A stretch of 64,000 bases of DNA from Gemmatales bacterium (lineage in GTDB: Bacteria > Planctomycetota > Planctomycetia > Gemmatales > HRBIN36): positions 749 through 64,748 of the forward strand of contig JBEPZY010000010.1 in assembly GCA_041640595.1 (NCBI GenBank). Direction: 5' to 3'. The position numbers were made by a program, and so were the translations under genes. The notes under the pieces were generated by a model. The model worked only from the letters and a program-made list of their open reading frames with translations, searched no databases and had not been told where the DNA came from. Below, one piece after another: positions 2,606-63,200 of this stretch; within the stretch, counting starts at the first letter, position 1; every line of letters begins with the position of its first letter.

Positions 2606-2849
2606 GAACGACTGTGCTTCCTTCTGATCGCAGAAAGGCGAGCGACCATCTGCTAACGGCACGCCAGGAGGCGGGATTGTCCTGGCCTTCAGGTCACGGG
2701 AGCGCCTCGCTCCCATAGCGCTTGGTCTCACCGGCTCAATCGGGTCAGATTGCCGGCGCCACGGAAGCACCTCGCTCCGATAGCGCTACCGGGAACCTCA
2801 GACTTTCTCACATTCTCCTCGCTAAAGGCGGGAAATTCGGTAAATCCTT

Positions 2850-2876
2850 CAAACCTGCCAGAGCTATTGCCGAAAG
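2850..2876 (+). promoter_or_regulatory. Putative sigma-28 (FliA) promoter
   Basis: CAAA-N15-GCCGAAAG resembles the TAAA-N15-GCCGATAA consensus; sits upstream of the small ORF-fliA unit. Confidence 0.35.
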
Positions 2877-2944
2877 ATCTACCGGAAGATTCGCCCTAGG
2901 CGGCGTGCTTCCACCATCGGGACGGCGTCTCACGGTCGCCAGCC

Positions 2945-3136
2945 ATGTCCAACAGCGTGGGACACAGAACTGTCTGGAAGCTGGCCGCAATCCTGGGCAT
3001 CACGGTCTGGTATCTCGCCCTGGGTGTGGGTATCTGGGCTGGCCTGGAACCTTTCACCATTTTCAAACGCGCCAGCGTGTCCGGCATCGTCGCCGGCTTG
3101 CTGAGTGGATTATGGCTGCGGCTATGCCAGCGCTAG
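2945..3136 (+). CDS. Small two-helix membrane protein in flagellar cluster
   Basis: 63 aa, two hydrophobic segments, between flhA and fliA on the same strand. Confidence 0.55.
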   Translation: MSNSVGHRTVWKLAAILGITVWYLALGVGIWAGLEPFTIFKRASVSGIVAGLLSGLWLRLCQR

Positions 3137-3188
3137 GCTTCCGCAAGAATCGCCAGGGTAATCGTCCGCCAATCATGCGGATCCGCCA

Positions 3189-4019
3189 ATGACCCCGGAC
3201 CACGACACCGAGCGTCAGGACTCCACCCTGCTGGCTTCGCCTCCGGTAACACCGCATCTGGCGGACATGCACGCGGTTTATCGGGAAACGCTCAGCCGGC
3301 AGCAGCGGGACGAACTGATTTTGTCTCACCTGTATCTGGTGCGGCATGTGCTCGGAAAACTGGCGGCTCGTTTACCACCGGGGATAGATCGAGAGAACCT
3401 GGAATCGGCTGGCGTGCTGGGTCTGGTAGAAGCTGCGGCACACTTTGATCCCAGCCGCGGTGTGCAATTCAAGACCTTCGCTTATTTTCGCATTCGCGGT
3501 GCTATTCTCGATGAGCTTCGCCGCAATTCCCCGTTATCTCAGGAAGCCTTGAAAAAATGGTCGCGGATTCGCGATGCCTATCAACGCCTGCCTGCACCGG
3601 CAAGTCTGGAAACGCTGGCCCAGGCTACCGGGATGAGTGTGGAAGAAGTTACCGATACTCTCGCGGCCTGGCGATTGTGCCGGTTGCTGTCGCTGGAGCA
3701 ACCTTCCCACGATCAGGATCAGTCTGCCAGCGACGGTAACGAGAATCCTCTGGCCAGTGCTCAACCGGTCGGAGATCGGCAGCTGCAACCCGGGCCGGAT
3801 CAAACGCTCGAACGCCGCGAACTCGCCGCAATCCTGGCGCAGGCGATTGAGCAATTGCCTCCCCGCGAACGCACCGTGTTTCTGCTGTACCACACCGAGG
3901 ATTTGCGGCTGGGTGAGATTGCTCAGGTGCTGGGTTTATCCGAGTCGCGCATCTGTCGGCTCCTGCAATCGGCGGAATGGCGAATCGCGGAATTCTTACG
4001 CCACAAGGAGGTGTTATGA
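3189..4019 (+). CDS. fliA: RNA polymerase sigma factor FliA/WhiG (sigma-28)
   Basis: LESAGVLGLVEAAAHFDPSRGVQFKTFAYFRIRGAILDELR (region 2) and LGEIAQVLGLSESRICRL (region 4); flagellar context. Confidence 0.9.
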   Translation: MTPDHDTERQDSTLLASPPVTPHLADMHAVYRETLSRQQRDELILSHLYLVRHVLGKLAARLPPGIDRENLESAGVLGLVEAAAHFDPSRGVQFKTFAYFRIRGAILDELRRNSPLSQEALKKWSRIRDAYQRLPAPASLETLAQATGMSVEEVTDTLAAWRLCRLLSLEQPSHDQDQSASDGNENPLASAQPVGDRQLQPGPDQTLERRELAAILAQAIEQLPPRERTVFLLYHTEDLRLGEIAQVLGLSESRICRLLQSAEWRIAEFLRHKEVL

Positions 4020-4216
4020 GCGAGCCGATCCATTTGCCTTCGGTTACTCCTTACGGCGGTTGGTCGGGCAGCAACGAGCAAACTCCGACTCGGCAACGCC
4101 GCAAATCTTCACCCACTCCTTCCTCCACCTCCAGCGAGCAGCCCGCTGCTGAGTCGGATACTTCCAACTCCGCTGACCAGAATCATCCCGGACAAATGGT
4201 GGATTACCAGGCATGA
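4016..4216 (+). CDS. Small disordered hypothetical protein
   Basis: ATGA overlap with the fliA stop, AAGGAGG upstream; ends GQMVDYQA. Confidence 0.6.
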   Translation: MSEPIHLPSVTPYGGWSGSNEQTPTRQRRKSSPTPSSTSSEQPAAESDTSNSADQNHPGQMVDYQA

Positions 4217-5226: not shown

Positions 5227-5313
5227 GGCAATCGTTTACACCGACGCTGGTTCCGACCGTTGGGCGTACCGCCAGGCGAAATGTCGTCCCCGCAAGCGTT
5301 GTTCTGGCTGGCC

Positions 5314-5478
5314 GCTGGCGCTGCGTTGACTGTACACCGAAGCCGGGATAATGCGTAACCGCACAGGTGCACTCGTGCATGCTGGCGGCGCGTTGGCCGT
5401 ACACCAAAGCAGGGATAATGCGTGACCGCTGAGATGTACTCGTGCATGCTGGCGGCGCGTTGACTGTACACCGAAGCC
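5314..5478. repeat. 67-bp tandem repeat, about 2.5 copies
   Basis: Units start at 5314, 5381 and 5448 (gctggcg..gcgttg..gtacacc..agc.gggataatgcgt.accgc...ctcgtgcat). Confidence 0.9.
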
Positions 5479-5967
5479 CAACTGTGTCCGTTCTCGCTTA
5501 CCGGCGACTATCTGTTTGCCATGCCTGCCGGTGTGCCATGTGTGCCGCTGTATTACCGAGCAAAAAGATGACCGTTATCCCACGGGTCTTTTTCCAGAGC
5601 GGAACACGTTGGGTGCATTGACTCTCGTTCAACGCAGATCGTTCAGAAAAGCCGTCGTTCTCTGCTTCCGAAGCGGAACGCGTTGGTGCATTGACGAAGC
5701 GAATCGCTGTCGAAAAATGCAAGCGAACGCGCCGTTGCCACCTGCCGGAATCGGAGCATGTGTCTAACGAAGCGAATGGTTGTCCGGGATGCAAGCCTGG
5801 TTGCTCGGCCTGTTCGCGGCAATCAGCATGCAGCCGTGCCAGGCAGCGTCGGAGAGAATCATGTCACGCACGGCATCAGGCTCAGGAAGTTGGGCCGACG
5901 GCGTAGAATTTGACTGGGCGGACATGCGTGCGGTAAACATCGGAGAAAGTTTCGGGAGAACCCGTGA

Positions 5968-7050
5968 ATGAGCGAAGGTCGCCGTCTATGGAGGTTGCCG
6001 TGGTGGATACCGTTACTGTCGGGGTTGTTCGCAGGCGTATGGCCGGTGTTATGGCCAGGCGGTAACGACCTGCCCAGCTGGGCACCGTTGATCGCGGCCG
6101 CCGCTATGATCTGGCTCGGTTGGGCAATCAAGTCGTGGTTTCTGGCATTGCTGACCGGCCTGATAATCGTGAACCATCCGAAGATGGACTGGTCGTCCTA
6201 TAGTTCGATGGCAGGCTGGCAATTGACCAGTCTGTTTCTGCTCGCGTGCTGGTGTTGCCACTTTTACGAACTGGTTTGGGCCGGCCCAGGCAATCGCAAG
6301 GGCTGGCTAATCTGGACACTGGTCGGAACGCTGCTGGCGTTTTCAGGAATGCTTGGCGTGGGTCTTTCCTTTTTCGGGGAGCCGACGCCATGCCTGGCCG
6401 GGCAAGCTGCGAGTACATTGTTTTTGCTCTGGTCAGCGACCGGTCTGGCCGTGCTGGTCTGGTGGACAAGCCATCGTCACCAGGTCGGCAGCTGGAAGTG
6501 CGTTCTGGCACTGCTGGTCCCGCTCGTACTCTCGGTGGCTGTGATAGGAGGATGGGCATTGGTGGATGTGGCGCTTGGAAAACCTGACGGTGCGAATTTT
6601 CCTTCGCAGAGCGTGCTGCCGATGACGGATACTCTGAAATGGCTCTGGTCCTCCTGGGACCGGGCCATGCTCAAGGCCTTACCGCTGCCGGACCGGCTGA
6701 ACGGAGTCTGGATGGGAACGGTTCTGGTGGTGTGGGGGTTATGGCGGAGTGTACGGCGTGCCCGGAGATGTGCTCGGCAAAACACAGCCGCCAGCTCTGT
6801 CCTGTTGCCGCTGGTTTTTCTCGCGGTCCTTTTGCAAATGGCCCTGTCGGCTCGCGAAATACCAGCTTCAGAGGACGTGCTCCGTGAAACGGGTTGTGTC
6901 ATAAGGCCGGATGCTGCAGGCTCGTTACTACTGCCGCTCGTCATGCTGACCATCACCTATCTGGTGCTGGACTTGGCACACGGTGTGGCGGAACGAATGC
7001 AGCTTCGCCCACCGACTCCGGAGACGCCTGGGGCAAACACTTCGCAGTGA
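5968..7050 (+). CDS. Polytopic membrane protein, unknown function
   Basis: 360 aa, many Trp-rich hydrophobic segments. Confidence 0.7.
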   Translation: MSEGRRLWRLPWWIPLLSGLFAGVWPVLWPGGNDLPSWAPLIAAAAMIWLGWAIKSWFLALLTGLIIVNHPKMDWSSYSSMAGWQLTSLFLLACWCCHFYELVWAGPGNRKGWLIWTLVGTLLAFSGMLGVGLSFFGEPTPCLAGQAASTLFLLWSATGLAVLVWWTSHRHQVGSWKCVLALLVPLVLSVAVIGGWALVDVALGKPDGANFPSQSVLPMTDTLKWLWSSWDRAMLKALPLPDRLNGVWMGTVLVVWGLWRSVRRARRCARQNTAASSVLLPLVFLAVLLQMALSAREIPASEDVLRETGCVIRPDAAGSLLLPLVMLTITYLVLDLAHGVAERMQLRPPTPETPGANTSQ

Positions 7051-7219
7051 TCAACGGCTTGATAACTGCGAGCGCTCGTGGACAAGCCGTTGCCTGACCC
7101 GTTGCGGGAAACACCTTGCAATGACCAACGGCTTGATAAGTGCGACAGTCGGGACCTTCCGCCTGGGAGAATCGGCAAAACCTTCGCGGGGATTAATGGT
7201 GTGAATCAGCGCGACAGAC

Positions 7220-8756: not shown

Positions 8757-8901
8757 AAGCGGCAGCAGTTAGCCTGATTTCAACTATAGTGCCTGGCCTA
8801 CGTTATCATACGACGCAATAACCTGGCAGCCAATTCCTGGTGCGTGCGCCAATTTTCGCCCCGATATTGCCTGCCAGCCGCTGTTTTCAGAGGTTTTTGG
8901 C

Positions 8902-9312
8902 CTAGTCCTCGTCCTCGTCTTCGTCCCAATCTTCATCTTCGTCTTCGTCGTAGTCCTCAAAATCTTCCTCTTCTTCCTCGAAATCTTCCTCCAGGTCTTC
9001 ATCTTCTTCGTCTTCCCACTCGTCATCCCAGTCCTCGTCTTCTTCTTCCTCTTCGAAGTCTTCGTCTTCTTCGAATTCGTCCTCATCAAACTCTTCTTCC
9101 TCGTCGAACTCTTCCTCCTCGAAGTCTTCTTCGTCCTCGAAATCTTCCTCCTCTTCGTCGAAATCCTCTTCTTCCTCTTCGTCGCGGGAACGACGACGAC
9201 CGGCCTGAGGAGCACTGCGGAGGTCAGTCTTGCCAATGCTGCTCAGTGGCGTGCAATCGCTGCGACTTCGGCCCCCGAAGAGCCACATTTTCAGAAAAAG
9301 TTTGCGTGTCAT
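8902..9312 (-). CDS. Extremely acidic low-complexity protein
   Basis: GAGGA upstream of ATG at 9312; basic N-terminus, then about 90 residues of D/E punctuated by F/W/Y/L. Confidence 0.7.
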   Translation of the reverse strand: MTRKLFLKMWLFGGRSRSDCTPLSSIGKTDLRSAPQAGRRRSRDEEEEEDFDEEEEDFEDEEDFEEEEFDEEEEFDEDEFEEDEDFEEEEEDEDWDDEWEDEEDEDLEEDFEEEEEDFEDYDEDEDEDWDEDEDED

Positions 9313-13907: not shown

Positions 13908-14357
13908 CGTTGGCCCCCCAGCTAGCACAGCCGACTGCCTGACAGCGCAATGCCAGCATTAGGCTGTATCGTATTCGCGTTGCCAATTCTTGTGCAAGTC
14001 CAAACGTCTTCCTGAACGGGAACCGCACCGGCATCTGTTGGCCGGTTCGGAATTGTTACCGACGTGCGGCGCCAGGTAGCTTGGTCGGGGAGAGCCTCCA
14101 CTTTGCTCCGTCCAATCTATTCTACGTTACGTCTGAGCCAACAGCGATAGTTTTCTGCTGCCTCCTTCAGGCACGCAACTGCGAACCAAACATCGGTAAC
14201 AGATACTGCGCGAACGTTGAACAAACAGACCCAGCGCAATTGCGAACCGAACGTCGGTAACAGCCCCCCTTTGAACCACGCGGAAGACTGACCCCGGTGT
14301 CGTTAGTCGCGTCATTTGCCGAACGTGAATCGAAAGTTTCTGCAAGCGCAATTCCCA

Positions 14358-35394: not shown

Positions 35395-36266
35395 CTCGCC
35401 GCACGTATCCGCGACTTACTCAGCCCACGCTGTACGGTCAGGTTAGCCCCACCAGACTACTCGCCGCCGGACCTGCGCAGTTGGCCTGTACCTGTATGTC
35501 GCCGCCAGCATCCCGGACATTTTCCCTCGCATTCGGCCAGATAGCGACTGAGTTTGTCCCGGAGTGCTGGCCGTTTCGGCAAGCTGGAGCAGTGTCTCTC
35601 CAGTTGCCGGCAAGCAATACCACGGAGCCGGCGGTACTGCTGGCACACCTGCCACGCTGGAGCAATGCGTCAGCGGAGCATCGTGCGGTTTTTTTCGCAT
35701 GTAAAAAGATAGCTTCAGTCCCGGCCTCGGTTTCGGCTTGATCAGCCGTTATTAGTGTAGCAGAGCCACCCCCACTTTGCCAGTGGCGGCCCCTCGGGAA
35801 ACTGTTCTGTTATTCGCCGAGCGAGAGGTTCAGCCGTTACTGCTTTTCCACTAAGATCCGCTGCAAAAACAACAAGCTCATGGAGAAGCCACAAGCACCA
35901 CCACGATTTCCTGGCCAATGCCTTCCCCCGAAGACAGCGCGGGATTCGCCAGAACGATGTCGGGCCAGGTTAAAAACAGTTCCCAGCGCAGGCAACTTCC
36001 AGGGCCGCGTAATAAGCCCACACGTTGCGGCTCCGAGCAACATCCAGCCATACCAATTGCCCATTCGTGTTCATGCACGGAGGCGGTCATTTGTCCCCCA
36101 AGCGACACGCAGGAATACCCAGTTTTTCGTTGCCTGCATGGCGGAACAGGCTGTAAACCGCGTCAAAAAATGTCCAGGAGGAATACCGATTTCCGGTTGC
36201 CAGCATGTCTTGCAGCGTTTAGCTTAACAAGCGGGAAAAACGCTTCTGCCCTCTGGGAGTTACGCC

Positions 36267-37873: not shown

Positions 37874-38191
37874 CTGAAAGCCCAAACCGTTGTCCTCGCC
37901 TAGCGGGCGTGCGAATCCGGCGTAACTACATCAAGGCAGGTGTAGCTTAGCTCCTTTGGTGGATCAGGTACAATGGTCCCATTGCGCGACTCCCGCGTAA
38001 CTACATCAAGGCGGGTGTAACGATGCACTGTGCGGCGTGCAGGTAGCAACTTGCGAATCCGGCGTAACTACATCAAGGCGTCCAAGTAACTGTAACCCGA
38101 ATAGTTGTGCTCGGCCGTATCGGCGGTCTGACTCCAGCATCGCTGCATCAAAGTGTCAAGCAGCTAAAAGCCCAAACGGTTGTCCTCGCCT
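37872..38191. repeat. CRISPR-sized mini-array (3 repeats plus 1 degenerate) bracketed by 30-bp direct repeats
   Basis: cgtaactacatcaaggc at 37921, 37996 and 38063, degenerate at 38138; flanks 37872-37901 and 38162-38191 differ at 2 positions. Confidence 0.75.
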
Positions 38192-38384
38192 TATTCGCTG
38201 CTTCTGATTGCGACGTTACCGGAGCAAGGCCACAGAAAGCCAGCCAGCCGATAACCTATCCGGTGCTTCTGATTGCGACGTTGAATTAGATGACGAAATG
38301 AGGAAAGCGTCCGTACGGGAACTCTTCGGTGCTTTTTATCGCTACCGTTGACGTGAGCCAGGCCGCAGAAGCAGGGTCTTCGCC

Positions 38385-40172: not shown

Positions 40173-40687
40173 GATTCACGTCTGCCCTGTTGCAGCAGGC
40201 ATTCCAGTCGAGTTTATTGTCCCATGACTGCGGGAAAGTTCGCCACTATCGCGCAGATTGCCGCCATTCCTTTCGAGATTATTGTCTCATTGCTGCCGCG
40301 GTCATGGTTCACGTCCGCCCCAGCGAACATCCCCGAGGGCGATTTTCTGCCTGTTCCTGACTGGCACGCCAGCAAAATTTGGTTCGCACCAGGGCATATT
40401 GTGTCGCGTAGCTGCTATTTGCGAAAGGGCCCATACGGCAGTGCGAAAACAGGAGTGAGCAGCCAGCAGAAACCGGCCATCGGCAAACCATAGAAAGCGC
40501 GGCAGTGCATAAAAGACGGAATGAGCAGTAACCACGAACACGGAGCAGCCAGCGATAAACGAAAACACACGCGGCAGTGTACGAAAGGCGTTATTTCGGC
40601 TGATGCAGTCAGTCGGCATGCTCGAATTTCACCAGTCGCCAACGCATCGGGCGGAGCGGCGACAGCTGGGCCTGTTGTGCCGGTCGG

Positions 40688-49790: not shown

Positions 49791-50136
49791 CGGACTTGCT
49801 CTTGGTCCTGACGCGCTTTCGGGCAGCGAAACCGCATCGGCGCACCAGGCGGATCGACAAGAAAGCTCGGCCAGTTCAACACCAAAGCACGGACGAGGTC
49901 CTTCGCCCAGGACGGTGGGGGTGCTATTCAGGTGTGGATGGCCAACGGGGAGCTACAGGCGGCTGGGCAAGAAGGTGCGAACGTTTTACCTCCGGGAAGC
50001 CAACATTTGCTGTCGAACGCGATCCTGTCGGCAACACCCGGGATCGGCGAAAATCGGTCCGCTATTCGGCCGGTTCAAATTTCGCTCGCCGTTGCAGGGG
50101 CGTTTCCCGGTACCAGAGTCGCCGAAAGTTGACCCA

Positions 50137-52303: not shown

Positions 52304-53539
52304 ATGAAGCAACGGGGCATGTCGCGGCGGCGATTTCTGAAGCACGGGGTGAGTACCACGCTCGGCCTGGCAGCTTTTTCTTACCAGCGCGTGCTGGGAG
52401 CCAACGAACGAGTGGTGATGGGCATCATCGGCAGTGGCGGGCGGGGACGAGGCTTGATGCAGCTTTTTCTGAAGGCCAAAACCTGTCCGGTGGAGTTTGC
52501 CGGTGTGTGCGACGTCTATGAAGCCAACCTGGCGCAGGGAATGCAAATCGCCGGTTCACGTGCCAAAGACTACGAGGACTATCGCCAGCTTCTGGCACAG
52601 CGCGACATCCAGGCGGTCATTATCGCTACTCCTGACCACTGGCATCATCGCCAGCTTCTGGACGCATTGGCAGCAGGCAAGGATGTTTATCTCGAAAAGC
52701 CCATGTCGTGGAGTATTGAGCAAGGGTTGGAGATGGTGTCGGCAACGCGGCGATCGAAGCAAATTGTGCAGGTGGGTATGCAACGCCGCAGTGCTCCTTT
52801 AGTGCACGAGGCCTGGCAAATCGTGCGAGAAGGCACGCTCGGTGAGGTCAACATAGCGCGTGCCCAGTGGTTCTGGAATATGCAGCCGTTGGCCAAAGAG
52901 CGTCACCTCAAAGGCCGACTCAACTGGCAGCAATTCTGCGGCCCGGCCGGGCCTCAACCCCTGGATCGCGGCGAGTATAAAAACGTCTCCTTCCTGAACT
53001 GGCGGTATTTCTGGGCTTTCTCCGGCGGCAACATGACCGACCAGGGCACCCATTTGATGGACGTAATTCAATGGTTCCTCAACGACGGACAACCGCCCCG
53101 GGCTGCCGTCTGCTACGGTCAGGTTTACCGTCTGCAACCGAGCGAAACGCCCGACACCTTCTGTGCCGTGTTTGAGTATCCCAAGTTTCTCGCCACCTGG
53201 ACACTCGCCTACACCAACAGCTACCAGGACGGCTGGAAAATTATCCTGCAGGGCAACAAGGCGACTCTGGAACTCGACAACGACGGCTACCGTGTCTATC
53301 CCGACCCCGGTCGCGGTGGGAAACCGCTGGCGGCCTCCCGGCAAAAACAAGGTGCGCTTCCCAGCGAACCGCACGTTGAAAACTTCCTGGAATGCGTCCA
53401 TAGCCGCCGTCCGCCGAACGCTCCCGTCGAAGTCGGGCATAACGCTGTTCTGGCTCCGCACCTGGCCAATCTCGCCTACAAATACGCCAGCCGTGCCGTT
53501 CTCCGTCCGGATGGCAAAGTCGTCTTTGCCCAGGGCTAA
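52304..53539 (+). CDS. Gfo/Idh/MocA oxidoreductase with Tat leader
   Basis: SRRRFLK, GSGGRG, ATPDHWH, DVYLEKP, GGNMTDQGTH. Confidence 0.9.
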   Translation: MKQRGMSRRRFLKHGVSTTLGLAAFSYQRVLGANERVVMGIIGSGGRGRGLMQLFLKAKTCPVEFAGVCDVYEANLAQGMQIAGSRAKDYEDYRQLLAQRDIQAVIIATPDHWHHRQLLDALAAGKDVYLEKPMSWSIEQGLEMVSATRRSKQIVQVGMQRRSAPLVHEAWQIVREGTLGEVNIARAQWFWNMQPLAKERHLKGRLNWQQFCGPAGPQPLDRGEYKNVSFLNWRYFWAFSGGNMTDQGTHLMDVIQWFLNDGQPPRAAVCYGQVYRLQPSETPDTFCAVFEYPKFLATWTLAYTNSYQDGWKIILQGNKATLELDNDGYRVYPDPGRGGKPLAASRQKQGALPSEPHVENFLECVHSRRPPNAPVEVGHNAVLAPHLANLAYKYASRAVLRPDGKVVFAQG

Positions 53540-53595
53540 CCTTTCCCGCAACCGAGCCAACTTCCGTAGCAAGCGCGACTATCTCTTCCGCGGCA

Positions 53596-53805
53596 GGAAT
53601 AACTTGCCTCGCCACGGAACTAACATGTGGTATTTTCGGGTTTTATCCGGCAGTGTGTCGGAGTCGCCGGGGAACCTTGCCTTGGCACGGATCTAACCTG
53701 CGATATTGCGAGCTTTTGTCCGACACAGCACCGGAGCGGTAGGAATACCTCGCCGCGTTACGGAACTGATGCTGCGGTGATTTTGCGCTTTTATTCGTCC
53801 ATGTC
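53596..53805. repeat. Degenerate 73-bp tandem array, 3 units
   Basis: acgga(a/t)ct cores at 53614, 53687 and 53760 with alignable flanks. Confidence 0.7.
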
Positions 53806-54636
53806 CTGGGCAAACATTCCATAACTGGTACCGTCAGGGGAGTAACTTGTCGCACAACGAGCCTCACCTGCCCCGGCATAGGGGAACCCTTCCACCAACA
53901 GCGACTAACCCGCTCCGCCATACGGCAACCCGCCCCGCGATAGGGCAATCCGTCCAGCACCGGGCCGACTTGGTCCCCGAACTACAGCACCGGGCTGTTG
54001 GCTCGCGTGCAGCGATCGGTAGGGCAACCGGGCCAGTTTCTCTCGGAAAACATTCGCCTATCATCTGCAACGGTGGTTCCGGCGCGGGTAAAAGACATGA
54101 GGCTTGCAATTTGTCCAGCAAAATACCGCCCACCATCTGCAAGGCTGGCCCCAGATTATCTTGTCGGCGCCCCTCTGACAACCGCAGACCGCACCACGAC
54201 GCGAAGACGGCCGACCTCTTCACGCCGACCTGATGCCGGCCCTTGAAAGCGCTCGCGTGGGTTACTAACATACTAAACAGTCGGTGCACGAGCACAGTGC
54301 AGCCCTGATTCTTGCTATTACTCACCCCTTTACCTGCCGAAGATTCCCGCCTGCTCCAGAACCGCCTGGCCGTTGACAGCCCTGACCATGATGTCGGCCT
54401 TGCTTCTGCCCCCAGTCGGAAACCGCTTCAGTATCGCTGCCCAAAACCGGCCGACTGGCTCCGTGGAACAATATGCTCTGTAACGGTGCCCAACCGCGGC
54501 TTCCGTATCGCTGCCCCCGAAAACATTCGGGTTACGCTACGGATATTCAGCGCCTCGGAATGTGAGAATGCCCTAAGCACACTGCTGCCAGAAAAGACTC
54601 TGAGCGGCAGGGCAACGTAGCTAAAGGAGTCGAACC

Positions 54637-57201
54637 ATGCACGCCAGCCGGGTTCGCAGGTTGCCACGCGGATGGATAACCATCGGGATGCTGTTGCTGA
54701 TCAGCCCATTTGCTTACGGACAGGCGAGTTATCCGCAACCGCGGTTACAAGCAGTTTTCCCACCGGGCGGGAAGCTCGGCACGACGGTGGAAGTTACCCT
54801 GACCGGAACCGATCTGGACGATGCCAGGTCGCTGGTATTCAGTCATCCTGGTCTGCAAGCGGAACTGATACCGCCTCCACCGCCCGACCCGAAAAAGCCA
54901 GGGCAACCGGCGCCGGTGAAATTCCGCGTTCGCATTGCCGCAGATGTACCACCGGGCATTTACGATGTCCGAATGGTGGGCCGGTTTGGTATCAGCAACC
55001 CGCGGGCTTTTTGTGTCGGCGAATTAGATGAATTGCTGGAACAGGAGCCGAACAATGACGTGGACCAGGCCCAGAAGGTGCCGCTGAACGTTACCGTCAA
55101 CGGCGTGATCAACCCCAACGTGGACGTGGACTATTTCGCTTTTGAAGGCAAAAAAGGGCAGCGCGTCGTCGTCTGGTGCCAGGCAGTGAGCGTGGACAGT
55201 CGGCTCGACCCGCAGGTGCAAATTTTCTCGGCGGAAGGTCGGCAACTGGCCATCAATCGCCGCTACCGCGACCGTGAAGCCGTCGCCGACGCCGTGCTCC
55301 CAGGCGATGGGCTTTATTATGTCCGCCTGGTCGAGTTCACACATCAAGCGGGTGGTGTCGAACACTTCTATCGCCTGCATATCACCACCCTGCCGTGGAT
55401 TGACGCGGTGTTTCCACCGGTGGTGCCCATCGGTAAACCGACCACGGTTACCCTGTACGGTCGCAATTTGCCCGGTGGACAACCGGAAAAGGTCCCGGGC
55501 TGGAGCGGAACCCTCCTCGAAAAACTTTCGGTCACCGTCCAACCACCGACTACCCCTGAAGCGCTCCATCGCCTTGACTATGCAGGCACCTTGCTGGCTG
55601 CGGAAGCTGTGTTGGATGGATTCACCTACCGTCTCAAGGCTCCCGGCGGCCATTCTAATCCGGTACTTCTCCCGGTTACCGATTTACCCGTGGTGATTGA
55701 ACAGGAAGGCAACGATTTATCGGAAAAAGCTCAGGAAATCGCCCTGCCCTGCGAACTGGTCGGACGCATGGATCGGCCCGGCGATCACGATTGGTTCGCC
55801 TTCAACGCCAAGCGGGGCGAAGTGTTCTGGCTGGAAGGTTATGCAGACCGATTAGGTTCGCCCATGGATCTGTACCTGGAGATTTATCTCCTGGATAAGG
55901 ACAACAAGCCGCAACTGGTGCTGGAAGCCGACGACGTGCAGGAAAGTTTACACCCCTTCCGCTTCTTCACGCGCACCAGCGATCCGCGATTGCGTTTTGG
56001 GGTCCCGCAGGACGGTCGGTATTTGCTGCACGTCCGCAGCCGCGAAGCAGACTTGTTTGGTGGGCCGCGTTACATTTATCGCCTCAGCATTCGCCGCGAA
56101 CAGCCGGACTTTCGTTTATTCGCCCTGACCGTGGACGACGCCTTACCCAACGCCACCAATCCCGGAGTGCCGATACTTCGGCAGGGCAGCGCTCGAGGAA
56201 TTCTGGTACTATGTGAACGGCAAAACGGTTTTGCCGGGGAAGTTACGCTCACCGCGGAAAACCTGCCCGCAGGTGTCCAGTGCCCGGCACAGATCATCGG
56301 TCCGAACCAGCGCTTTACTTATCTGGTGTTGCAGGCGGCCCCGGATGCCCCAATAGGCGAATCGGCGATCCGTATCCTCGGCACGGCCAGCATCGACGGG
56401 CAAACTGTGACCCGTGAAGCCCGACCGGCCGCAACTGTCTATACAGTCCAGGCTGGCGTCCCACCTTATGCCCGACTGGCCCGGCAATTTTTTATCGCGG
56501 TACGGGAAAAACCACCTTTCGCCCTGCAACCGGCCACGCAGCTCATCGAAGTTCCTCCTGGTGGCTCCATAGCCCTGAAAATTAAAGCCGCCCAGTTGCA
56601 GCCCGACTTCAAGTCGGCCATCCAGCTGTCACCGCTTTCGTTCCTCCTGCTGCCCAATCAGCAGCCTAACCCGCAACCGCAAAACCTCGCTAACGTCAAT
56701 CCCAATGCGGAAGTCGAGGTGAAACTGCAGGTCCCGCCGCAAGCCACTCCCGGCACGTACAACCTGGTGCTCCGCGGTTCCGCTCAGGTCCCGTTTACGC
56801 GCGACCCGAAAGGAGCAAATCGGCAAAACGTCCTCCTCGCTCAGGAGACACCGCCGGTCAAAGTCGTTGTATATAACACCGTAGCCGAACTGGCGGCCGA
56901 GCCGGCTTCCCTCTCCGCCAAACCCAATGACAAAGTCGCCCTGACCGTCCGCGTCAAACGGTTGCACAACTACACCGGCCCGTTCAACGTTCAGCTGGCT
57001 CTCCCGCCGGGTGCTCAGGGAATCGCGGCCCAGCCGGTTCAAATTCCCGCCAACGCCAGCGAAGCGAAACTTACCCTGCAAATCGCAGGCAATCTGAAGC
57101 CGGGCATGACCGTACCGGTTATCATCCGGGCCACTGCCAACCTGCCCAACAATGTCAACCTGAACCACGAAATCAAACTGGAAGTCAAAATCGCCCAGTA
57201 A
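54637..57201 (+). CDS. Secreted PPC (pre-peptidase C-terminal) domain protein
   Basis: VFPPGGKLGTTVEV, EQEPNND, DVDYFAF and DHDWFAF repeats; signal peptide. Confidence 0.85.
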   Translation: MHASRVRRLPRGWITIGMLLLISPFAYGQASYPQPRLQAVFPPGGKLGTTVEVTLTGTDLDDARSLVFSHPGLQAELIPPPPPDPKKPGQPAPVKFRVRIAADVPPGIYDVRMVGRFGISNPRAFCVGELDELLEQEPNNDVDQAQKVPLNVTVNGVINPNVDVDYFAFEGKKGQRVVVWCQAVSVDSRLDPQVQIFSAEGRQLAINRRYRDREAVADAVLPGDGLYYVRLVEFTHQAGGVEHFYRLHITTLPWIDAVFPPVVPIGKPTTVTLYGRNLPGGQPEKVPGWSGTLLEKLSVTVQPPTTPEALHRLDYAGTLLAAEAVLDGFTYRLKAPGGHSNPVLLPVTDLPVVIEQEGNDLSEKAQEIALPCELVGRMDRPGDHDWFAFNAKRGEVFWLEGYADRLGSPMDLYLEIYLLDKDNKPQLVLEADDVQESLHPFRFFTRTSDPRLRFGVPQDGRYLLHVRSREADLFGGPRYIYRLSIRREQPDFRLFALTVDDALPNATNPGVPILRQGSARGILVLCERQNGFAGEVTLTAENLPAGVQCPAQIIGPNQRFTYLVLQAAPDAPIGESAIRILGTASIDGQTVTREARPAATVYTVQAGVPPYARLARQFFIAVREKPPFALQPATQLIEVPPGGSIALKIKAAQLQPDFKSAIQLSPLSFLLLPNQQPNPQPQNLANVNPNAEVEVKLQVPPQATPGTYNLVLRGSAQVPFTRDPKGANRQNVLLAQETPPVKVVVYNTVAELAAEPASLSAKPNDKVALTVRVKRLHNYTGPFNVQLALPPGAQGIAAQPVQIPANASEAKLTLQIAGNLKPGMTVPVIIRATANLPNNVNLNHEIKLEVKIAQ

Positions 57202-57315
57202 CTCCAGCAAAATCCTCCAGTAACTCCAGGAGCCACGCCTGGACTCCATGACCCGCCGATGGCAAATAATCCCCACTGCCCACCATCGCTCAGGACTACC
57301 AAGGAGACCCCTGCC

Positions 57316-58767
57316 ATGACACCGCGACGTATTGCCACAATTTACCCCGGTTTCGCCATGACCTGGGTGGTACTTCTGGGATTCTCGGCTGGGACGTTGC
57401 TTGCCCAGGAAGTTCCCGTCGAGCCGATCAAGGTCATCACCCTGAACCGCAAGGAGTCGGTCAGCTTCGAGAAAGAAATTTACCCCATTCTGGAGGACAA
57501 GTGTATCAGTTGCCATGCCGGGCCGGTGAAATCCGGTGGTCTGGACTTGAGCACCTACGAAGGGTTGATGAAAGGCGGCAAACGCGGCGCGGCCGTGCAC
57601 CCTGGCCGACCCAATGACAGCTTGCTCGTGCAATTGGCCGGACGCACAAAACAACCTGTCATGCCGCCGGTCAAAAAAGGAAGCAAGGATGACCCTCTCA
57701 CCCCCGAACAACTCGCTCTGATCAAGCTCTGGATCGAACAAGGAGCCCGCGGCCCCAGCGTGGCCATCGAGCGGAAACGCGAGTTCAAACTCGGACGCAT
57801 TCCCCAGGCCATTCGTCCCATCGGCGCCCTGGCTATCAGTCCCGATAAGTCCACGCTGGTAGCCAGCCGCGGCAGTGAAATTCATGTTTACGAGGCTGCT
57901 TCGGGAAAATTCCTCCGTGCACTGATCAACCCTGAACTCAAGGACGACAAAGGCCAGCCGATGAACATCGCCCATCTCGACCTCGTCCAGGCCCTGGCTT
58001 ACAGTCCCGATGGCCAAATAGTCGCCAGTGCCGGGTTTCAGGAAGTCATCCTCTGGGACGTGCAAACCGGACAGATACGTCAGCGCTTCACGGGTTTCCG
58101 TGACCGCGTTACCGCCCTGGACTTTTCCCGCGACGGTAAGTATCTGGCTACTGGCGGCGGGGCTCCTACTGAAGACGGGGAACTGCGCCTCATCGAGCTT
58201 CCTTCCGGCAAAATCGTGTTCGATAAACGCGACGCGCACAGCGACACCATTTTCGGCGTTCGCTTCAGCCCCGACGGCAAACTCCTGGCCAGTTGTGGTG
58301 CCGACAAGTTCGTCAAGGTCTGGGAAGTGCCTTCCGGAAAATTCGTCAAGTCCTTCGAGGGACACACCCATCACGTCATGGATGTCGGCTGGAAAGGCGA
58401 CGGCAAACTCCTGGCCAGTTGTAGTGCCGACAACACCGTCAAGGTCTGGGACTACGAAAAGGGCGAACAGGTGCGTACCATTCAAGCTCACGGCAAACAG
58501 GCCACTCGCATGGCGTTCCTCGCCAACGGAACGCAATTCATTACCATCAGCGGTGAAGGTTCGGCGAAAATGTGGAACATCGACAACGGCGGACAAATTC
58601 GCACTTTCCCCGCCGGAAACGATTTCCTCTACGCAGTGGCCGTCAGTCCTGATGGCGCCATCGTTGCCGTCGGTGGACAGGACAGTGTCATCCGCATCTT
58701 CAACGGCCAGAACGGTCAGCTTATCCGAGAACTCCGTCCCCCCGATTCTCTCGCCGCCAAACCGTGA
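57316..58767 (+). CDS. Planctomycete cytochrome c + WD40 repeat protein
   Basis: KCISCH heme motif, MPP, IKLWIEQGA; several FSPDGK..LAS..D..VKVW WD40 blades. Confidence 0.9.
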   Translation: MTPRRIATIYPGFAMTWVVLLGFSAGTLLAQEVPVEPIKVITLNRKESVSFEKEIYPILEDKCISCHAGPVKSGGLDLSTYEGLMKGGKRGAAVHPGRPNDSLLVQLAGRTKQPVMPPVKKGSKDDPLTPEQLALIKLWIEQGARGPSVAIERKREFKLGRIPQAIRPIGALAISPDKSTLVASRGSEIHVYEAASGKFLRALINPELKDDKGQPMNIAHLDLVQALAYSPDGQIVASAGFQEVILWDVQTGQIRQRFTGFRDRVTALDFSRDGKYLATGGGAPTEDGELRLIELPSGKIVFDKRDAHSDTIFGVRFSPDGKLLASCGADKFVKVWEVPSGKFVKSFEGHTHHVMDVGWKGDGKLLASCSADNTVKVWDYEKGEQVRTIQAHGKQATRMAFLANGTQFITISGEGSAKMWNIDNGGQIRTFPAGNDFLYAVAVSPDGAIVAVGGQDSVIRIFNGQNGQLIRELRPPDSLAAKP

Positions 58768-58816
58768 AGCACTTAGCTCGGGCCGAGAACAGGAAATCAG
58801 CTTCCGCGGTGCGGCC

Positions 58817-58994
58817 CCGATTCCCTCAACACAAACCGCAAGGCGCTTACTAAATACATCAAACAGGTTATATCTGCTTTGATCTCCCCTTTATGACTAT
58901 TGCGCCCATAGGCTGTGTAACTTACTAAATACATCAACCAGGCTATATCTGCTTTGATATCGCCGATTCCCTCAAGACAAACCGCAAGGCACTT
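58817..58994. repeat. Repeat-spacer-repeat unit (38+37+38 bp) bracketed by 32-bp direct repeats
   Basis: cttactaaatacatcaa(a/c)cagg(t/c)tatatctgctttgat at 58846 and 58921; flanks 58817-58848 and 58963-58994. Confidence 0.8.
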
Positions 58995-59204
58995 CTCACT
59001 GGCTGAAAATCATCACGAAATTCCGGCGAGCTAATAAGAACGCCTTTTAGATACGCAGACCTGTTTTCCGCGACCTCTAACACGCATTAGCCTCGCTGCA
59101 CAACCTCAATATTCAGCTTTTGGCCCGGCGAGGATGTTTCCAGCGCTCTTATCTAATATCGTTTCGCCACTGCTGACCCAAGGCGAATACCGGCCAGGTT
59201 CAGC

Positions 59205-59303
59205 CAATTCCAGCGTCTAACAATCCGGCACCGTGGCAGGAAGTGAATTAATGTCTTTTGCTGGGAATAAGCAATTCCAGCGTCTAACAATCCGGCACCG
59301 TGG
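59205..59303. repeat. Exact 32-bp direct repeat pair, 67-bp period
   Basis: caattccagcgtctaacaatccggcaccgtgg at 59205 and 59272. Confidence 0.85.
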
Positions 59304-59727
59304 GAGGAGAGCGAGTTCTGGGAAGACGGAGCATTTCTTGGCATCACCCGCAGCAGCTATCAGCAATGGTTAGAGAAAGGCGCCCGTCCTTTGCTTAGTT
59401 GTCTCCGCCGCAAATACCCCAACCTCCGCCGCGTCAAGTACCCGACTTAGCATTGAGCAATGGATGGCCGGTAAACCTGGATTCGAGCTGGAGAAAATGC
59501 ATAATACTCGAAACATCATTGTGGTACCATTAATATTAGTCGCCAGGAAACTTACATTTTCTAAGTCCCTCTAACAGTGTGAACCACTCCACCAGCGCCT
59601 CCAATTCTCAGCCTTGAGGCGGTGTATAATTTACCGACAAACTCAACGAACGTTCTAATAAAAATTATTGGGCTAAGCATTACCAAGAGTCGGTGTTAGT
59701 GTAAGCCTGGATTAGCGTCAGCGGGCG

Positions 59728-60456
59728 TGTTTTGCGGCGGGGACGAAGTTGCTGACGCCGCACGGGCCGAAAGCGATTGAAACGTTCCAGGTCGGCGACG
59801 AAATCCTCACGCGACTGGAATGGGAGCCGGATGCACCGGTGCTGGTTAGCCAGGTTGAGGCACGGTTCGAGAACGTGGCTCGTATCTGGCACCTGCACCT
59901 GGCCAGCGGGCAGGTCATCCGCACGACGGCAGAGCATCCGTTTTAAGTAGATGGGCGTGGGTGGGTGGCGGCAGGCGAGTTGCGACCCGGCGACTTGCTG
60001 GTCAGCCACGATGGTCGGCGGGTGGCGGTCGTCGAGCTGTACGACACCGGCCAATACGAATGCGTGTACAACCTTGCCATCCGCTCCTTCCACACCTACT
60101 TTGTCTGCGACGAATCCTGGCCCTTCTCCGTCTGGGCACATAATGCGTGCGATATAACTAAGGATATCAGCAAAATAGGCCGGCGTGGGAAACAAGGATA
60201 TGTCCGCGTTGTCAAGTCTGAAGAGGAGCTGCTGGACATCTTCAATAAATATGCCCAAGGAGGTGTAGAGGTGTCGTTGACTGCGGCGCATAGAGCCCAG
60301 GAAATAGAACGAATGGTAGACCTCACCGACACAGCCCTCGGTACAGTGCGCCTAATCTACCGCAAGGTCTCAAAGTCAGGTGGCCCGGCAATAGACATCA
60401 TGATTAAGAATCTGAAGGGCGGTTTCGACTTTTGGAGAAGAATTCACATAGGATAA
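59728..60456 (+). pseudogene. Orphan polymorphic toxin module 1: Hint domain + about 103-aa toxin tip, nonsense-interrupted
   Basis: CFAAGTKLLT (Cys1 at 59728)...TTAEHPF*(TAA 59944)VDGRGW...VYNL...HTYFV...VWAHN|A; in-frame stop 5 codons upstream of Cys1, so no delivery domain. Confidence 0.85.
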
Positions 60457-60466
60457 GAGGTGTGAC

Positions 60467-60967
60467 ATGACATTAGATGAAATGTGGACACGTGCGTTAG
60501 CCGACCTGTTAGCTTGGGCATCTGACGATGATGTATCTCTTGTGCATGTATGGAGCGCAATTTCAACCAAGATGCCCGAAGAATATTGGTTAGACGATGA
60601 GACCCACATGACTAACACTCTCAAACTGCTTGAGCACTGTCTGAAAGAGGGTTATTTAGTGGCCGGAGAGACGTTTCGGATTGGTCCAGAACCGCCTCCG
60701 GGTCTATCGCCCGAAGAACGGCTACGCTGGTACCACGCGTATGTTCGCGAACACGGCCCTACGCTCGACTGGCGGCCGTGGGACATGGGATATAGCGAGG
60801 CACTCAAGAAGATTGCCCGAGAGTGGAAAGCTATCGAGAAACCCTTCTCCGATCCCACGGCTATGTATTGCATAGTCACGTTGGTGCCGACGCTGAAGGC
60901 GATGCGCGAATATGAGCGATTGCGTAAGCAATTGAAACTCGACGAAGAGAAGGAAGACGAGGACTAA
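60467..60967 (+). CDS. Putative immunity protein for toxin 1
   Basis: Intact 166-aa ORF with GAGG RBS immediately after the toxin tip. Confidence 0.75.
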   Translation: MTLDEMWTRALADLLAWASDDDVSLVHVWSAISTKMPEEYWLDDETHMTNTLKLLEHCLKEGYLVAGETFRIGPEPPPGLSPEERLRWYHAYVREHGPTLDWRPWDMGYSEALKKIAREWKAIEKPFSDPTAMYCIVTLVPTLKAMREYERLRKQLKLDEEKEDED

Positions 60968-61230
60968 GAATTACACCTACTCAGAGTGATGGCAGGAAGC
61001 AACGCTTAGATATATTTTGGCACCATGCGTTCGATGAAGCGTTCTCTGATTTCGCCAGACGACATGGATGGAAGAACATTTACAAGTTACTGGATGGTGG
61101 CGAAACCACCCCGACTAAATTATTCGACGCGATGGAGGAAATCACCAGGCAAGTTTTACATGGGCACAGGGCATTACAACCAACGCTCAACGAACTGCAA
61201 CGCATCCGCACTGTGTTAGGAATACCCTAG
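60968..61230 (+). pseudogene. Startless toxin-tip-like fragment
   Basis: Open frame RITPTQSDGRKQRLDIFWHHAFDEAF...RIRTVLGIP* with no plausible 5' start, ending just before the next gene's RBS; absent from the ORF track. Confidence 0.5.
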
Positions 61231-61272
61231 TATCGCATGGGAATAATACACAGGAACGGAAAGGAGAAGAAT

Positions 61273-62217
61273 ATGGCCCTCATCGCCTTTGGCCGACTTC
61301 GCCAAGAGGCTTCGCCAGAGCTGGTGGCAGCCTTGCAAGGGCTGGCGACGATCAAGCTGGGTGACAAGATTTACTGGCACCTGGATGATGGTGGAGAGGC
61401 GTTGTTTCGTTCCTACGAACTGATCCGGTCCGCCGGCAACGACCTGGTGAGACCCTTGATCGGGATTTGTCTTGATGACCCCAAGGTATTCCCGAAAGAC
61501 GGCAAACAGGTGGTCGGGCTGGTAGTGGAATCCCTGGATATGCTTTCTCTGCGGAATCCGCCGGAGGATTACCGACGACCACCCGTGGGGCCTTGCGACA
61601 GTGGTTTGAAGGAGGAGGCGGAGATTGACTTAGACGAGCGGCCCAAGGGACTGTTTGTGACTGCAGGTAGTAACGAGTACATTGCTCACGACGATTGGCT
61701 AGCCGAATTTGCCAGTGCCTCGCTCACTGGGGTCAAGCCGGTGCGGTATCGGGGCAAGGTGTTACCCAATTGGAATCGCTTACGCGTTTTGAAGCGGCAG
61801 GAGATTATAGACGAGATCTGCCTGGCATGGATTTGCTGTGCTTTGTGTGGGCAGCCGCTGGTGACCGACTTCCACGAGGTGTGGTTTGCGAAGCGGCAGG
61901 AGCCGGTGCAGGAGACGGTGGTCAACACGCGGGGACGGGGCCACTATGGAGAGAGTCCGATCATCGTGGTGAGCCAGGAAGCGGTGGCGCGGTTTCGCAA
62001 GAAATATAAGCTGCAACGGGCGGGGCTGCGAGTGGACCGTGTTTACTCTCAGGCGACGAAGCGATATGAGATATTGAGTCGGGTGCCGAAGTTGTTGGAG
62101 CATATTGCAGCGGAGAAGCTGGCCGAGGTGCAGGCTGGGGGCAAGCAGCCGACGCTGACGAAGGAACAGTTGGCGGGTTTGCGGGCGCTGTGGAAGGGAT
62201 TTACTGGCTCGAAGTGA
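61273..62217 (+). CDS. Putative immunity protein with CxxCG motif
   Basis: AAGGAG RBS, intact 314 aa, CALCGQP and IIVVSQE; follows the toxin-like fragment. Confidence 0.7.
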   Translation: MALIAFGRLRQEASPELVAALQGLATIKLGDKIYWHLDDGGEALFRSYELIRSAGNDLVRPLIGICLDDPKVFPKDGKQVVGLVVESLDMLSLRNPPEDYRRPPVGPCDSGLKEEAEIDLDERPKGLFVTAGSNEYIAHDDWLAEFASASLTGVKPVRYRGKVLPNWNRLRVLKRQEIIDEICLAWICCALCGQPLVTDFHEVWFAKRQEPVQETVVNTRGRGHYGESPIIVVSQEAVARFRKKYKLQRAGLRVDRVYSQATKRYEILSRVPKLLEHIAAEKLAEVQAGGKQPTLTKEQLAGLRALWKGFTGSK

Positions 62218-62465
62218 GGCTTGGGAGACCGCATCGACCTAGTGTTGACACGATGCTATAAGATGAGCCGAGCGAACTAACTCTTGGCATCAGTCTTGCC
62301 GAGGGACATCGCGTTGACACTATACTGTTACTTAGCTGAGCGAAAAACTTAGTTTTTCCATAAGTCCCTTGAGTTGACATCCCGATGACAGTATGTTGCG
62401 GCAGGAGAAAGAAGTGAGACGGTGTGGCGAGTGGATAATGCGAGCAGAGCTGCCTGTGCGCTAAA

Positions 62466-63200
62466 GGTCATCCGCACGACGGCGGAGCATCTCGTCGGTT
62501 AGCACCATGTCCTGCAGTCCAGGTTTAGGCCAACCTACTTGCACGACGCCGGAGCATTCGTTGTATGTGGATGGGCGTGGTTGGGTGCCGGCGGGCGAGT
62601 TGCATGCCTGCGACATGTTCACTCCTAAGGCTGCTGAGTTGATAGAGAAAGCGGGGTTGGCTGCCGGCAGGGGAGTTGCGACCCGGCGACTGGTTCACCG
62701 CTAAGGCTGCTGAGTTGAAAAAGAAAGCATGGTTGGGTGCCGGCAGGCGAGTTGCGACCCGGCGACTTGCTGGTCAGCCACGATGGTCAGCGGGTGGCGG
62801 TTACTGAGCTGTACGACACCGGCACCTACGAACGCGTCTATAACCTTGCCATCCGCTCCTTCCACACTTACTTTGTTTGCGACGAATCCTGGCCCTTCTC
62901 CGTCTGGGCACATAACAGCTGTGGTGTTCCCCTAAACACAAATTACGACCGCCAGGTCCAGGAAGTATGGGATAAGATAGCAAATTAGCTTGGCCAAGGC
63001 TTTCGGATTGTGCGCAGTGACGAACGGGCGTTTGTCGCTATAAGCCGTGACGGATTGCGAAAGTTTCGGATTGATTTCCAGGGCCACAGGCACCAACATA
63101 GGCCCCACGTCTATTAGGAAATATTCAGGCAAGACATCAATGACTGGGTTGACGCATTCCAGGAAGGCATTTCTTGGACTTGCAGCCATAAAGGAGAGCG
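62466..63200 (+). pseudogene. Orphan polymorphic toxin module: fragmented Hint + toxin tip with two in-frame TAG
   Basis: Hint pieces at 62466, 62541, 62655 and 62731, then near-identical to module 1 up to VWAHN (62916); tip IAN*LGQGFRIV...SRDGLRKFRIDF..HRHQHRPHVY*E with TAG at 62986 and 63115. Confidence 0.8.

Follow-up and report, generated by a model that had tools for sequence, protein, structure and literature searches.

Short direct repeats at a fixed spacing are scattered through the non-coding DNA of a Gemmatales bacterium (Planctomycetota), and we interpret them, with a probability of about 0.9, as fossil off-target spacer integrations (neo-CRISPR units) by Cas1-Cas2, the integrase of CRISPR systems, in places later amplified by slippage. 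The stretch under study, hereafter the window, is 64,000 nucleotides long and covers C10:749-64748 of a 4.45-Mb assembly (GCA_041640595.1), whose contigs we call C1, C2 and so on; positions given without a contig are those of the window. The typical locus has the form X-Y-X, in which a local segment X stands twice around a segment Y that resembles neither the upstream nor the downstream flank. Two classes can be told apart, an A-type with a period of ~74 and an X of ~37 bp, and a B-type with a period of ~66 and an X of ~30 bp.

The spacing itself is real and non-random. A first-pass annotation, made from the letters of the window alone, had listed direct duplications 61-76 bp apart in nearly every large intergenic region, and ungapped comparison, extension, and gapped alignment of its 24 adjacent pairs bear out the repeats at nearly all of them; most pairs are near-exact over 20-40 bases at the listed spacing, after which identity drops to chance. 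The excess of recurrence distances over shuffled sequence that it had proposed to look for is also found. Across the whole assembly, recurrence distances of 12-mers show a huge peak at 65-79, much of it contributed by two giant CRISPR arrays. When the arrays are masked, and a hit is counted as a diagonal with at least 24 of 28 matches at a distance (d) of 30-160, the peak persists and splits in two, with 25, 76, 47, and 22 diagonals at d = 65-68 (170 hits) and 53, 58, 63, 57, and 17 at d = 72-76 (248 hits, protein repeats among them, including part of d = 72). Most other distances between 30 and 160 hold 0-9 hits, the exceptions being multiples of 3 (protein repeats) and a family of REP elements at 88-94, and no hit at d = 60-80 remains once the genome is shuffled in blocks of 500 bp. 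In the window alone, 15 of 30 diagonal hits fall at d = 61-76. The spacing that it described holds across the genome, although not as a continuum from 61 to 76 bp: the dispersed periods are bimodal (~66 and ~74), with peaks at 66/67 and 73-75, as in the native arrays.

Assembly artefact, which the first-pass annotation had itself raised as a threat to its claim, is ruled out, because 44001-59234 is reproduced without a difference in a contig from an independent run, and the event at 58846 is spanned, with no gap, by a contig (run X5, 57697-59198) from a strain ~1% diverged; the copies within loci have, in addition, diverged from one another. Operator-type regulatory repeats were rejected since the loci are sequence-unrelated and decaying, and a scan of the window against Rfam at gathering thresholds gave no match. 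Tandem Repeats Finder (TRF) by itself reports just two whole-unit arrays in the window, at 5314 and 62575.

The anatomy of the units is what ties them to CRISPR adaptation. At most loci, the repetition covers just the initial 28-38 bp of an apparent unit and the remainder is unrelated, such that the earlier description of mutually unrelated units ranging from exact to decayed holds for the spacing, which the loci share without sharing sequence, and fails for the unit, which is not a decayed duplication of 61-76 bp but an X-Y-X. Measured by a maximum-scoring-segment rule, X peaks at 28-31 in the 65-68 class and at 37-39 in the 73-76 class, with medians of 30.0 (n = 140) and 37.0 (n = 130; Mann-Whitney p = 3e-13). 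In the short class, 91 of 140 events have an X of 28-32, and in the long class 56 of 130 have one of 35-39; at control distances such peaks are missing. If only the 31 youngest events are taken, whose copies have no more than 1 mismatch, X is 36-38 in 9 of the 10 that are A-type.

These dimensions are those of the two native arrays. Array A, at C1:359749-377898, is built of 247 repeats 37 bp long, and its spacers measure 33-40 nt (mostly 36-37). Array B, whose repeats are 30 bp long and whose spacers measure 35-40 nt (mostly 36-37), counts 317 repeats on C8:3-21080 and continues on C10:65236-66999 with 27 repeats that start 488 bp beyond the window end, for at least 344 repeats over two contig ends. 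The native periods are 66-67 in array B (range 65-70) and 73-74 in array A (range 70-77). In each class, the median target duplication equals the native repeat in length (30 or 37), and the insert, taken as period minus X, is ~36-37 nt, as native spacers are. The last 8 nt of the A and B repeats are identical.

The machinery is present in the same genome. It has exactly two Cas1 and two Cas2 matches, one cognate pair adjoining each array. Array B is neighbored (C8:3-37142) by cas1/cas2 with cas4, cas3, cas5, and cas7 (type I-B) and by a type III-B cmr2-6 cluster. Beside array A (C1:356211-377898) are cas2, an open reading frame (ORF) of 101 residues, a group-II-intron-like reverse transcriptase (RT; RVT_1, E = 1.6e-33), and cas1; no effector genes lie beside this cas2/RT/cas1 module. 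Two-repeat mini-arrays at C3:328836-328932 and C20:1348-1444, whose repeats are variants of the native 30-bp B repeat, may be remnants or offshoots of array B. The dispersed units are of another kind: X differs at every locus and no repeat is common to all of them, X being barely closer to the native repeats than background (means of 11.6 versus 10.9 of 30 and 13.8 versus 13.4 of 37) and lacking the 3' end that is conserved between the native repeats of A and B. Degenerate true CRISPR arrays were rejected as an explanation on the ground that X is local sequence.

Empty sites show what such loci look like without an insertion. Among 210 events with a class-typical X, which form the set for the insert analysis, nine have a paralogous region in the same genome in which, by a collinearity rule, both flanks adjoin a single X and Y is absent. 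Three of the nine are of REP type and are not interpreted; the other six represent five independent events. Aligned with MAFFT, the event at 63917 and its paralog at C1:12146-12487, which has the same flanks and one X, differ by a single 65-column gap, and the event in a Cas10-like gene on C3 and its 97% identical paralog on C8 differ by a single 76-column gap. Both aligned empty copies have X once and no Y, as predicted by insertion with target duplication and not by tandem duplication of a local unit.

These observations bear on the mechanism that the first-pass annotation had favored, namely, local copying of a 61-76 bp unit measured by a ruler of 6-7 helical turns or by a nucleoid-protein wrap. 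Stated in general form, a CRISPR-independent copying error (template switching or a nucleoid-protein ruler) would make tandem duplications of a fixed step, producing minisatellites that then decay. True whole-unit tandem arrays do exist in non-coding DNA, as at 5314 and 62575 and in a few runs of 3-6 units elsewhere (e.g., C3:151085-151710 and C1:307573-308041), with unit identity of 83-100% among the 66-76 bp arrays. Yet many of these arrays measure n x d plus ~30 or ~37 bases, that is, X-Y-X-Y-X, as slippage on an X-Y-X seed would leave them, and repetition of a whole unit, as opposed to X alone, is seen only as a secondary step, in such arrays, the empty sites lacking Y. Most loci take the form X-Y-X, sharply bounded and with a downstream flank unrelated to Y; the two periods and two X lengths are the two native CRISPR geometries, one Y matches a native spacer, and the empty paralogous sites contradict copying for the events that they cover. 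A copying error is thus very unlikely as the source. What stands of the earlier proposal is a genome-wide, length-measuring process acting at unrelated sites, with an agent of the integrase or recombinase type and one module linked to an RT; what falls is the copying, in place of which we find an unrelated ~36-bp insert with a 30- or 37-bp target duplication, and the helical ruler, in place of which the repeat-length rulers of two Cas1-Cas2 integrases plus the length of a spacer would set the period.

The origins of the inserts point in part the same way. Most Ys (187 of 210) have no other match in the genome, and the 23 that do are mostly segmental duplicates of the whole locus or REP-linked. 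The Y of the event at C2:174386 matches native spacer 185 of array B at 30 of 31 positions. A second link runs through C15, a 9.6-kb contig (1-9585) with a GC content of 0.50 against 0.58 for the genome, to which 32 native spacers (31 B, 1 A) match, mostly on one strand and from the cas-proximal end of the array. The C15 protospacers are followed by GG at +2,+3 (29 and 28 of 33 rows, respectively), equivalent to a 5'-CC motif in the sense of the CRISPR RNA. C15 probably represents a viral or plasmid sequence that ended up in the genome bin; PHROGs gave no match for its 9 ORFs, and Pfam gave one matrixin-like peptidase and a sub-threshold match to a protein-primed polymerase B, and nothing else. 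C15 is also matched by the Y at C2:407699, an event present a second time at C3:561426 (28 of 30 positions), and by the spacer of the B-like mini-array at C3:328836 (31 of 34, with a correctly placed CCG motif).

Other inserts come from the genome itself. Genes of this same genome are the source of three B-type Ys, one of them identical over 33 nt to C1:732923-732955, and in all three sources C-GGG directly follows the matched part; as a spacer-like signature this is modest, being weakened by free ends and offsets. Two further ectopic Ys, one per class, derive from conserved 23S rRNA (C3:484583 and C3:554031, matching the rRNA operon on C5 at 33 of 34 and 25 of 27 positions).

Insertion with target duplication is also what transposons typically do, and one could imagine tiny mobile elements akin to miniature inverted-repeat transposable elements (MITEs), moved by a transposase unrelated to CRISPR and leaving unusually long duplications, of 30 or 37 bp. 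A few Ys are indeed multi-copy. At C4:6795-6890 and C4:7911-8005 (period 66), X is a REP element and the 38-nt insert recurs at C1:228899, C2:37069, C2:374716, and elsewhere; the paralog at C4:8060-8379 has the REP once and lacks the 38-nt insert. Such units, flanked by REPs and sharing an insert, may have arisen when Cas1-Cas2 integrated at REP hairpins, or may belong to a separate module linked to REPs. Against mobile elements as a general explanation stand the inserts that are unique and mutually unrelated, among which no sequence family with conserved ends was found, the identity of duplication and insert lengths with native repeats and spacers, and the matches of inserts to a native spacer and to the invader contig targeted by the array. 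We regard MITE-like elements as the least probable of the sources considered, to the point of being scarcely credible.

Off-target spacer integration can be pictured as follows. In the normal reaction, the integrase would attack both ends of the first repeat of an array, on opposite strands and one repeat length apart; a prespacer of ~36 nt would be ligated between the attack points, and gap repair would duplicate the repeat. The same reaction on ordinary DNA would duplicate the 30 or 37 bp between the attack points around a spacer, giving an X-Y-X with a period of ~66 (30 bp, type I-B Cas1-Cas2-Cas4) or ~74 (37 bp, Cas2/RT/Cas1). An insertion would survive, and decay neutrally, if it fell in non-coding DNA or kept the frame in a part of a gene that tolerates it. 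Two copies of X would permit slippage or unequal exchange, leading to X-Y-X-Y-X and longer minisatellite-like runs, and sites hit again would grow into small neo-CRISPR arrays with differing inserts. We infer this enzymology, and the assignment of scars to one or the other protein set; the geometry, the presence of the machinery, the origins of inserts, and the empty sites can be read from the genome itself.

The age of the scars invites a different question about their maker. Because X copies mostly differ by 2-5 mismatches, most scars must be old and the recent rate low. The maker of old scars cannot be read off directly, and a Cas1-family or other integrase since lost from the genome, such as a casposase or a vanished CRISPR module, might have made them in place of the resident modules. 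Such a lost enzyme is highly improbable: both X-length classes fit the two resident arrays exactly, only two Cas1 matches exist in the genome, and young scars with identical X copies occur in both classes. The same data qualify the earlier suggestion of an ongoing process: attributed to the resident integrases, it was long-acting and left some young scars in both classes, and the small number of recent events gives the word "ongoing" weak support.

Scars fall mainly outside genes. Removing REP-type X and near-duplicate loci reduces the 210 events to a clean set of 188, with 152 events between genes, 24 reaching the edge of a gene, and 12 within called genes, in a genome of which a crude gene caller assigns ~79% to coding sequence. 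The period is a multiple of 3 in 10 of the 12 in-gene events versus 53 of the 152 intergenic ones (Fisher p = 0.0014), an excess that lends weak support to selection, as in-frame repeat spacing may itself favor the calling of an ORF. Two in-gene scars are solid. In a Ser/Thr kinase gene (C3:377522-378718), the scar is in frame and 72 bp long, lies on the C-terminal side of the kinase domain, and has X copies of 38 bp that are identical. A second Cas10/Cmr2-like gene, with HD and palm2 domains (C3:415627-418077) and far from both arrays, has an in-frame 75-bp scar near its start that is absent from the paralog at C8:38083-38520.

Across the genome, scar counts in 50-kb bins are overdispersed (variance/mean 2.4), and the counts of the two classes correlate across bins (rho = 0.41, p = 2e-4) beyond what intergenic length explains. 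Scars are dense on C2, C3, C4, C9, C10, and C12 and sparse on C1:450-1200 kb, C6, and C7. They are not enriched near REP elements, and X shows no excess hairpin potential. Fifteen loci mix both period classes, being sites hit again by either system.

Several results weigh against off-target integration as we present it. X lengths scatter, and 17 events of period 73-76 have an X of 28-30; the pair at 14174 in the window has a period of 61, outside both native ranges. No clear target motif emerges, as an orientation-free expectation-maximization search over flank, X, and flank gave 3.9 and 4.5 bits versus 3.0-3.9 in random intergenic controls, and only a weak resemblance (z = 4.2 and 2.7) links the ends of X to those of the native repeats. 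GG is missing beside the match of the Y that shares 28 of 30 positions with C15, an exact search of a viral contig collection with three young Ys returned no match, and three REP-type units with a multi-copy Y (e.g., C4:6795) fit the geometry and not the expectation of a unique foreign spacer. Recent events are few, with identical X copies in 12 of 188 and a mode of 2-5 mismatches. The in-frame test depends on the crude gene caller, several of the 12 "coding" events lying in low-scoring ORFs. Finally, over 44001-64000, the contigs of four public sequencing runs contain, among those listed, no join that skips 65-76 bases.

This last result is bounded by the material compared. Contigs of the public runs often break at repeats, and those of diverged strains mostly end at intergenic regions, from which nothing follows about the absence of empty alleles. 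The empty paralog on C1 accounts for loose contig ends at 63944. An exact search of metagenome contigs with the X of the 59205 event found no match in a collection from which records of this genome, or of a near-identical one, may be left out. Orthologous empty sites were not found in relatives: the closest species-level genomes are ~80% identical in the neighboring gene, and intergenic DNA is not comparable because the alignment ends with the gene.

Relatives nevertheless offer a sense of scale. In a search of 31 genomes (30 relatives and the one studied here), 20 have a Cas1 match, our genome included. By the count that gives ~9 hits per 100 kb in our genome, stretches of relatives, which are small, related samples and not a test across lineages, give six pairs in 420 kb of a genome of the same genus with both Cas1 types (G003; d = 67, 72, and four times 74, otherwise only 126), one pair in 191 kb of a genome of the same genus with an A-like array (G002; d = 75), one pair in 376 kb of a Cas1-bearing genome of the same family (G004; d = 75), and none in 400 kb, apart from multiples of 3, of a genome with no Cas1 match (G027). 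Our genome is the extreme case among the relatives sampled.

Within the window, the clearest simple units are distributed over both classes. B-type units are found at 2695-2722 and 2760-2787 (period 65; 25/28 between X copies, then unrelated), around a Y of 37 nt at 2723-2759 in DNA that is intergenic by crude gene calls; at 32023-32053 and 32089-32119 (period 66; 30/31, with a sharp boundary), around a Y of 35 nt at 32054-32088; at 38192..38282 (period 65), with an X of 26 nt (24/26) and a Y of 39 nt; at 49557-49587 and 49623-49653 (period 66; 29/31), where the independent run's contig is identical; and at 59205..59308 (period 67), with an X of 32 exact nt, or 37 with a chance extension, at which exact repeat the contig of run X2 breaks, as unitigs do. 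The unit with the empty paralog, at 63917-63947 and 63982-64012 (period 65; 28/31) around a Y at 63948-63981, extends 12 nt beyond the window end. A-type units are found at 7035-7071 and 7109-7145 (37 nt each; period 74; 32/37), around a Y of 37 nt at 7072-7108, and at 58846-58883 and 58921-58958 (38 nt each; period 75; 36/38), around a Y of 37 nt at 58884-58920. The X at 7035-7071 contains the last 16 nt and the stop codon of the gene at 5968-7050, in keeping with the earlier remark that some units copy local coding DNA, which also holds for the pretoxin-HINT fragment at 62575.

Two loci have been amplified into X-Y-X-Y-X. The B-type array at 5314..5477 (period 67) spans 164 bp, or 2 x 67 + 30, the remainder being the native B repeat length; TRF scores it at 2.4 copies and 85%, with 83/97 matches on the diagonal. 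The A-type array at 62575..62767 (period 76) spans 193 bp, or 2 x 76 + 41 (TRF 2.5 copies, 84%; 99/117), and lies at the start of the pretoxin-HINT gene fragment (ORF 62737-62988, PT-HINT, E = 2.9e-7). Whole-unit duplications of another appearance are seen at 49636-49714 and 49704-49782 (period 68; 59/79), overlapping the B-type unit at 49557, and at 53603..53797, an old one with a period of 73 and ~68% identity (79-nt alignment, z = 13).

A composite locus at 37911..38194 bears the marks of both systems. Its A-type pair (37911-37944 and 37986-38019, period 75) has an X that runs into an earlier insert, and its B-type pair (37986-38013 and 38053-38080, period 67) is followed by a decayed whole-unit copy (38055-38120 and 38130-38194, period 75). 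Over 37911-38080, the 37-type duplication spans the junction of an earlier 30-type unit, and because the three inserts of the locus differ, it must reflect successive integrations and not slippage.

The remaining loci are decayed, marginal, or atypical. Decayed units include an A-type with X at 5587-5622 and 5661-5695 (period 74/73, one indel; 36-nt gapped alignment, z = 14), a B-type at 36111..36207 (X of ~30 nt, one indel; period 68; gapped alignment z = 7.4), and a pair at 62236..62344 (41 nt, one indel; period 69/68; z = 7.9). Three pairs listed by the first-pass annotation, at 5694/5767, 53687/53760, and 54425/54499, prove marginal: the first, a second step of the 5587..5796 locus (5694-5724 and 5767-5796), scores 13.8 against a maximum of 13.3 in 500 shuffles; the second, a third step of the 53603 locus, 12.2 against 11.2; and the third (54425..54516, period 74) retains 18 recognizable nt of X (17/18). 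The period-72 pair claimed at 40499/40571 (40498..40590) is indistinguishable from chance, at 12.2 against a maximum of 12.8 in 500 shuffles. The unit at 14174..14263, with an X of 29 nt (26/29) and a Y of 32 nt, has the period of 61 mentioned above, below every native period.

Other repetitive features of the window are separate from these scars. A REP-like palindromic family with a spacing of 82-93 bp occurs at 14551-14674, 23116-23330, 23577-23680, and 28156-28360; a simple pattern finds 371 REP cores genome-wide, and these, the source of the 88-94 peak, are not among the CRISPR-type scars. On the minus strand, 8900-9180 is a low-complexity acidic repeat coding region (TRF periods 6-33), where a d = 66 hit is due to chance. 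The stretch at 59722-60156 is 97% identical to C3:421122-421556, and relatives of 59913-60156 recur at 62465-62915. Depth in the public runs is raised over 59.3-64 kb, which looks like a repeated cassette region (also 59680-60291 and 63200-63660).

What would such a record mean for the cell? We entertain, at slightly less than even odds, the broader idea that CRISPR adaptation in this hot-spring lineage has unusually low target fidelity and that its two Cas1-Cas2 integrases, one of them RT-linked, act as a standing endogenous mutagen. If so, they would have written ~200 surviving insertions, roughly one for every three array spacers, lengthening intergenic DNA, seeding 66- and 74-bp minisatellites, occasionally starting new arrays, and adding in-frame segments of 22-25 residues to real genes, including the Cas10-like and Ser/Thr kinase genes. 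The scars would then form a natural two-system atlas of Cas1-Cas2 misses, and from the regional clustering that the two systems have in common one would suspect a factor of the host or of chromosome structure that guides integration or fails to do so. Off-target integration is known mainly from over-expression, and here it would be frequent enough to shape non-coding DNA. The genome offers ~200 sites targeted naturally by two different integrases of the same cell, a visible route from a single mis-integration to minisatellites and new arrays, and examples of in-frame scars that can persist in genes, a cas10 paralog among them. It also suggests a simple test for any genome, which is to look for dispersed direct repeats spaced at its own repeat-plus-spacer length.

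The first-pass annotation knew of no described mechanism for its repeats, and one has in fact been published: the mechanism is known, and the scale is unusual. As summarized in citing articles (10.1101/148544, PMC6698737, PMC7054753, PMC11788318), off-target integration by over-expressed E. coli type I-E Cas1-Cas2 gives rise to neo-CRISPR loci (Nivala, Shipman and Church, Nat Microbiol 2018). According to one citing preprint, that work gave only circumstantial evidence in two other species, and whether off-target integration is common in nature is unclear. Our literature search, of incomplete coverage, turned up no description of such scars in large numbers in a natural genome. The scars described here share with these neo-CRISPR loci a spacer-length insert, a repeat-length duplication of a non-CRISPR target, a cognate integrase in the genome, and the capacity of repeated hits to grow small arrays (here 37911-38080). 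They differ in being a natural record of ~200 events made by two modules at once (type I-B and RT-linked), some of them in frame within genes and some later amplified into runs that resemble minisatellites.

Three other known systems invite comparison. Bona fide CRISPR arrays and orphan mini-arrays have the same 66 and 74 bp periodicity, and the mini-arrays at C3:328836 and C20:1348 carry B repeat variants; in the dispersed scars, by contrast, the repeat is an arbitrary local sequence at each locus, sometimes a gene end, and usually present in two copies. RT-associated CRISPR adaptation (RT-Cas1 systems) takes spacers from RNA; our genome resembles such systems in having a 37-bp array beside cas2, RT, and cas1 and two ectopic inserts derived from 23S rRNA, one per class, and differs from them in that RT and Cas1 are separate genes and in that two rRNA-derived inserts do not amount to a demonstration of RNA uptake. 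Bacterial intergenic minisatellites and variable-number tandem repeats, finally, resemble some of our tandem 66-76 bp arrays, which have 83-100% identity and are capable of slippage, whereas here unit length is set by CRISPR geometry and most loci are single insertions with unrelated inserts.

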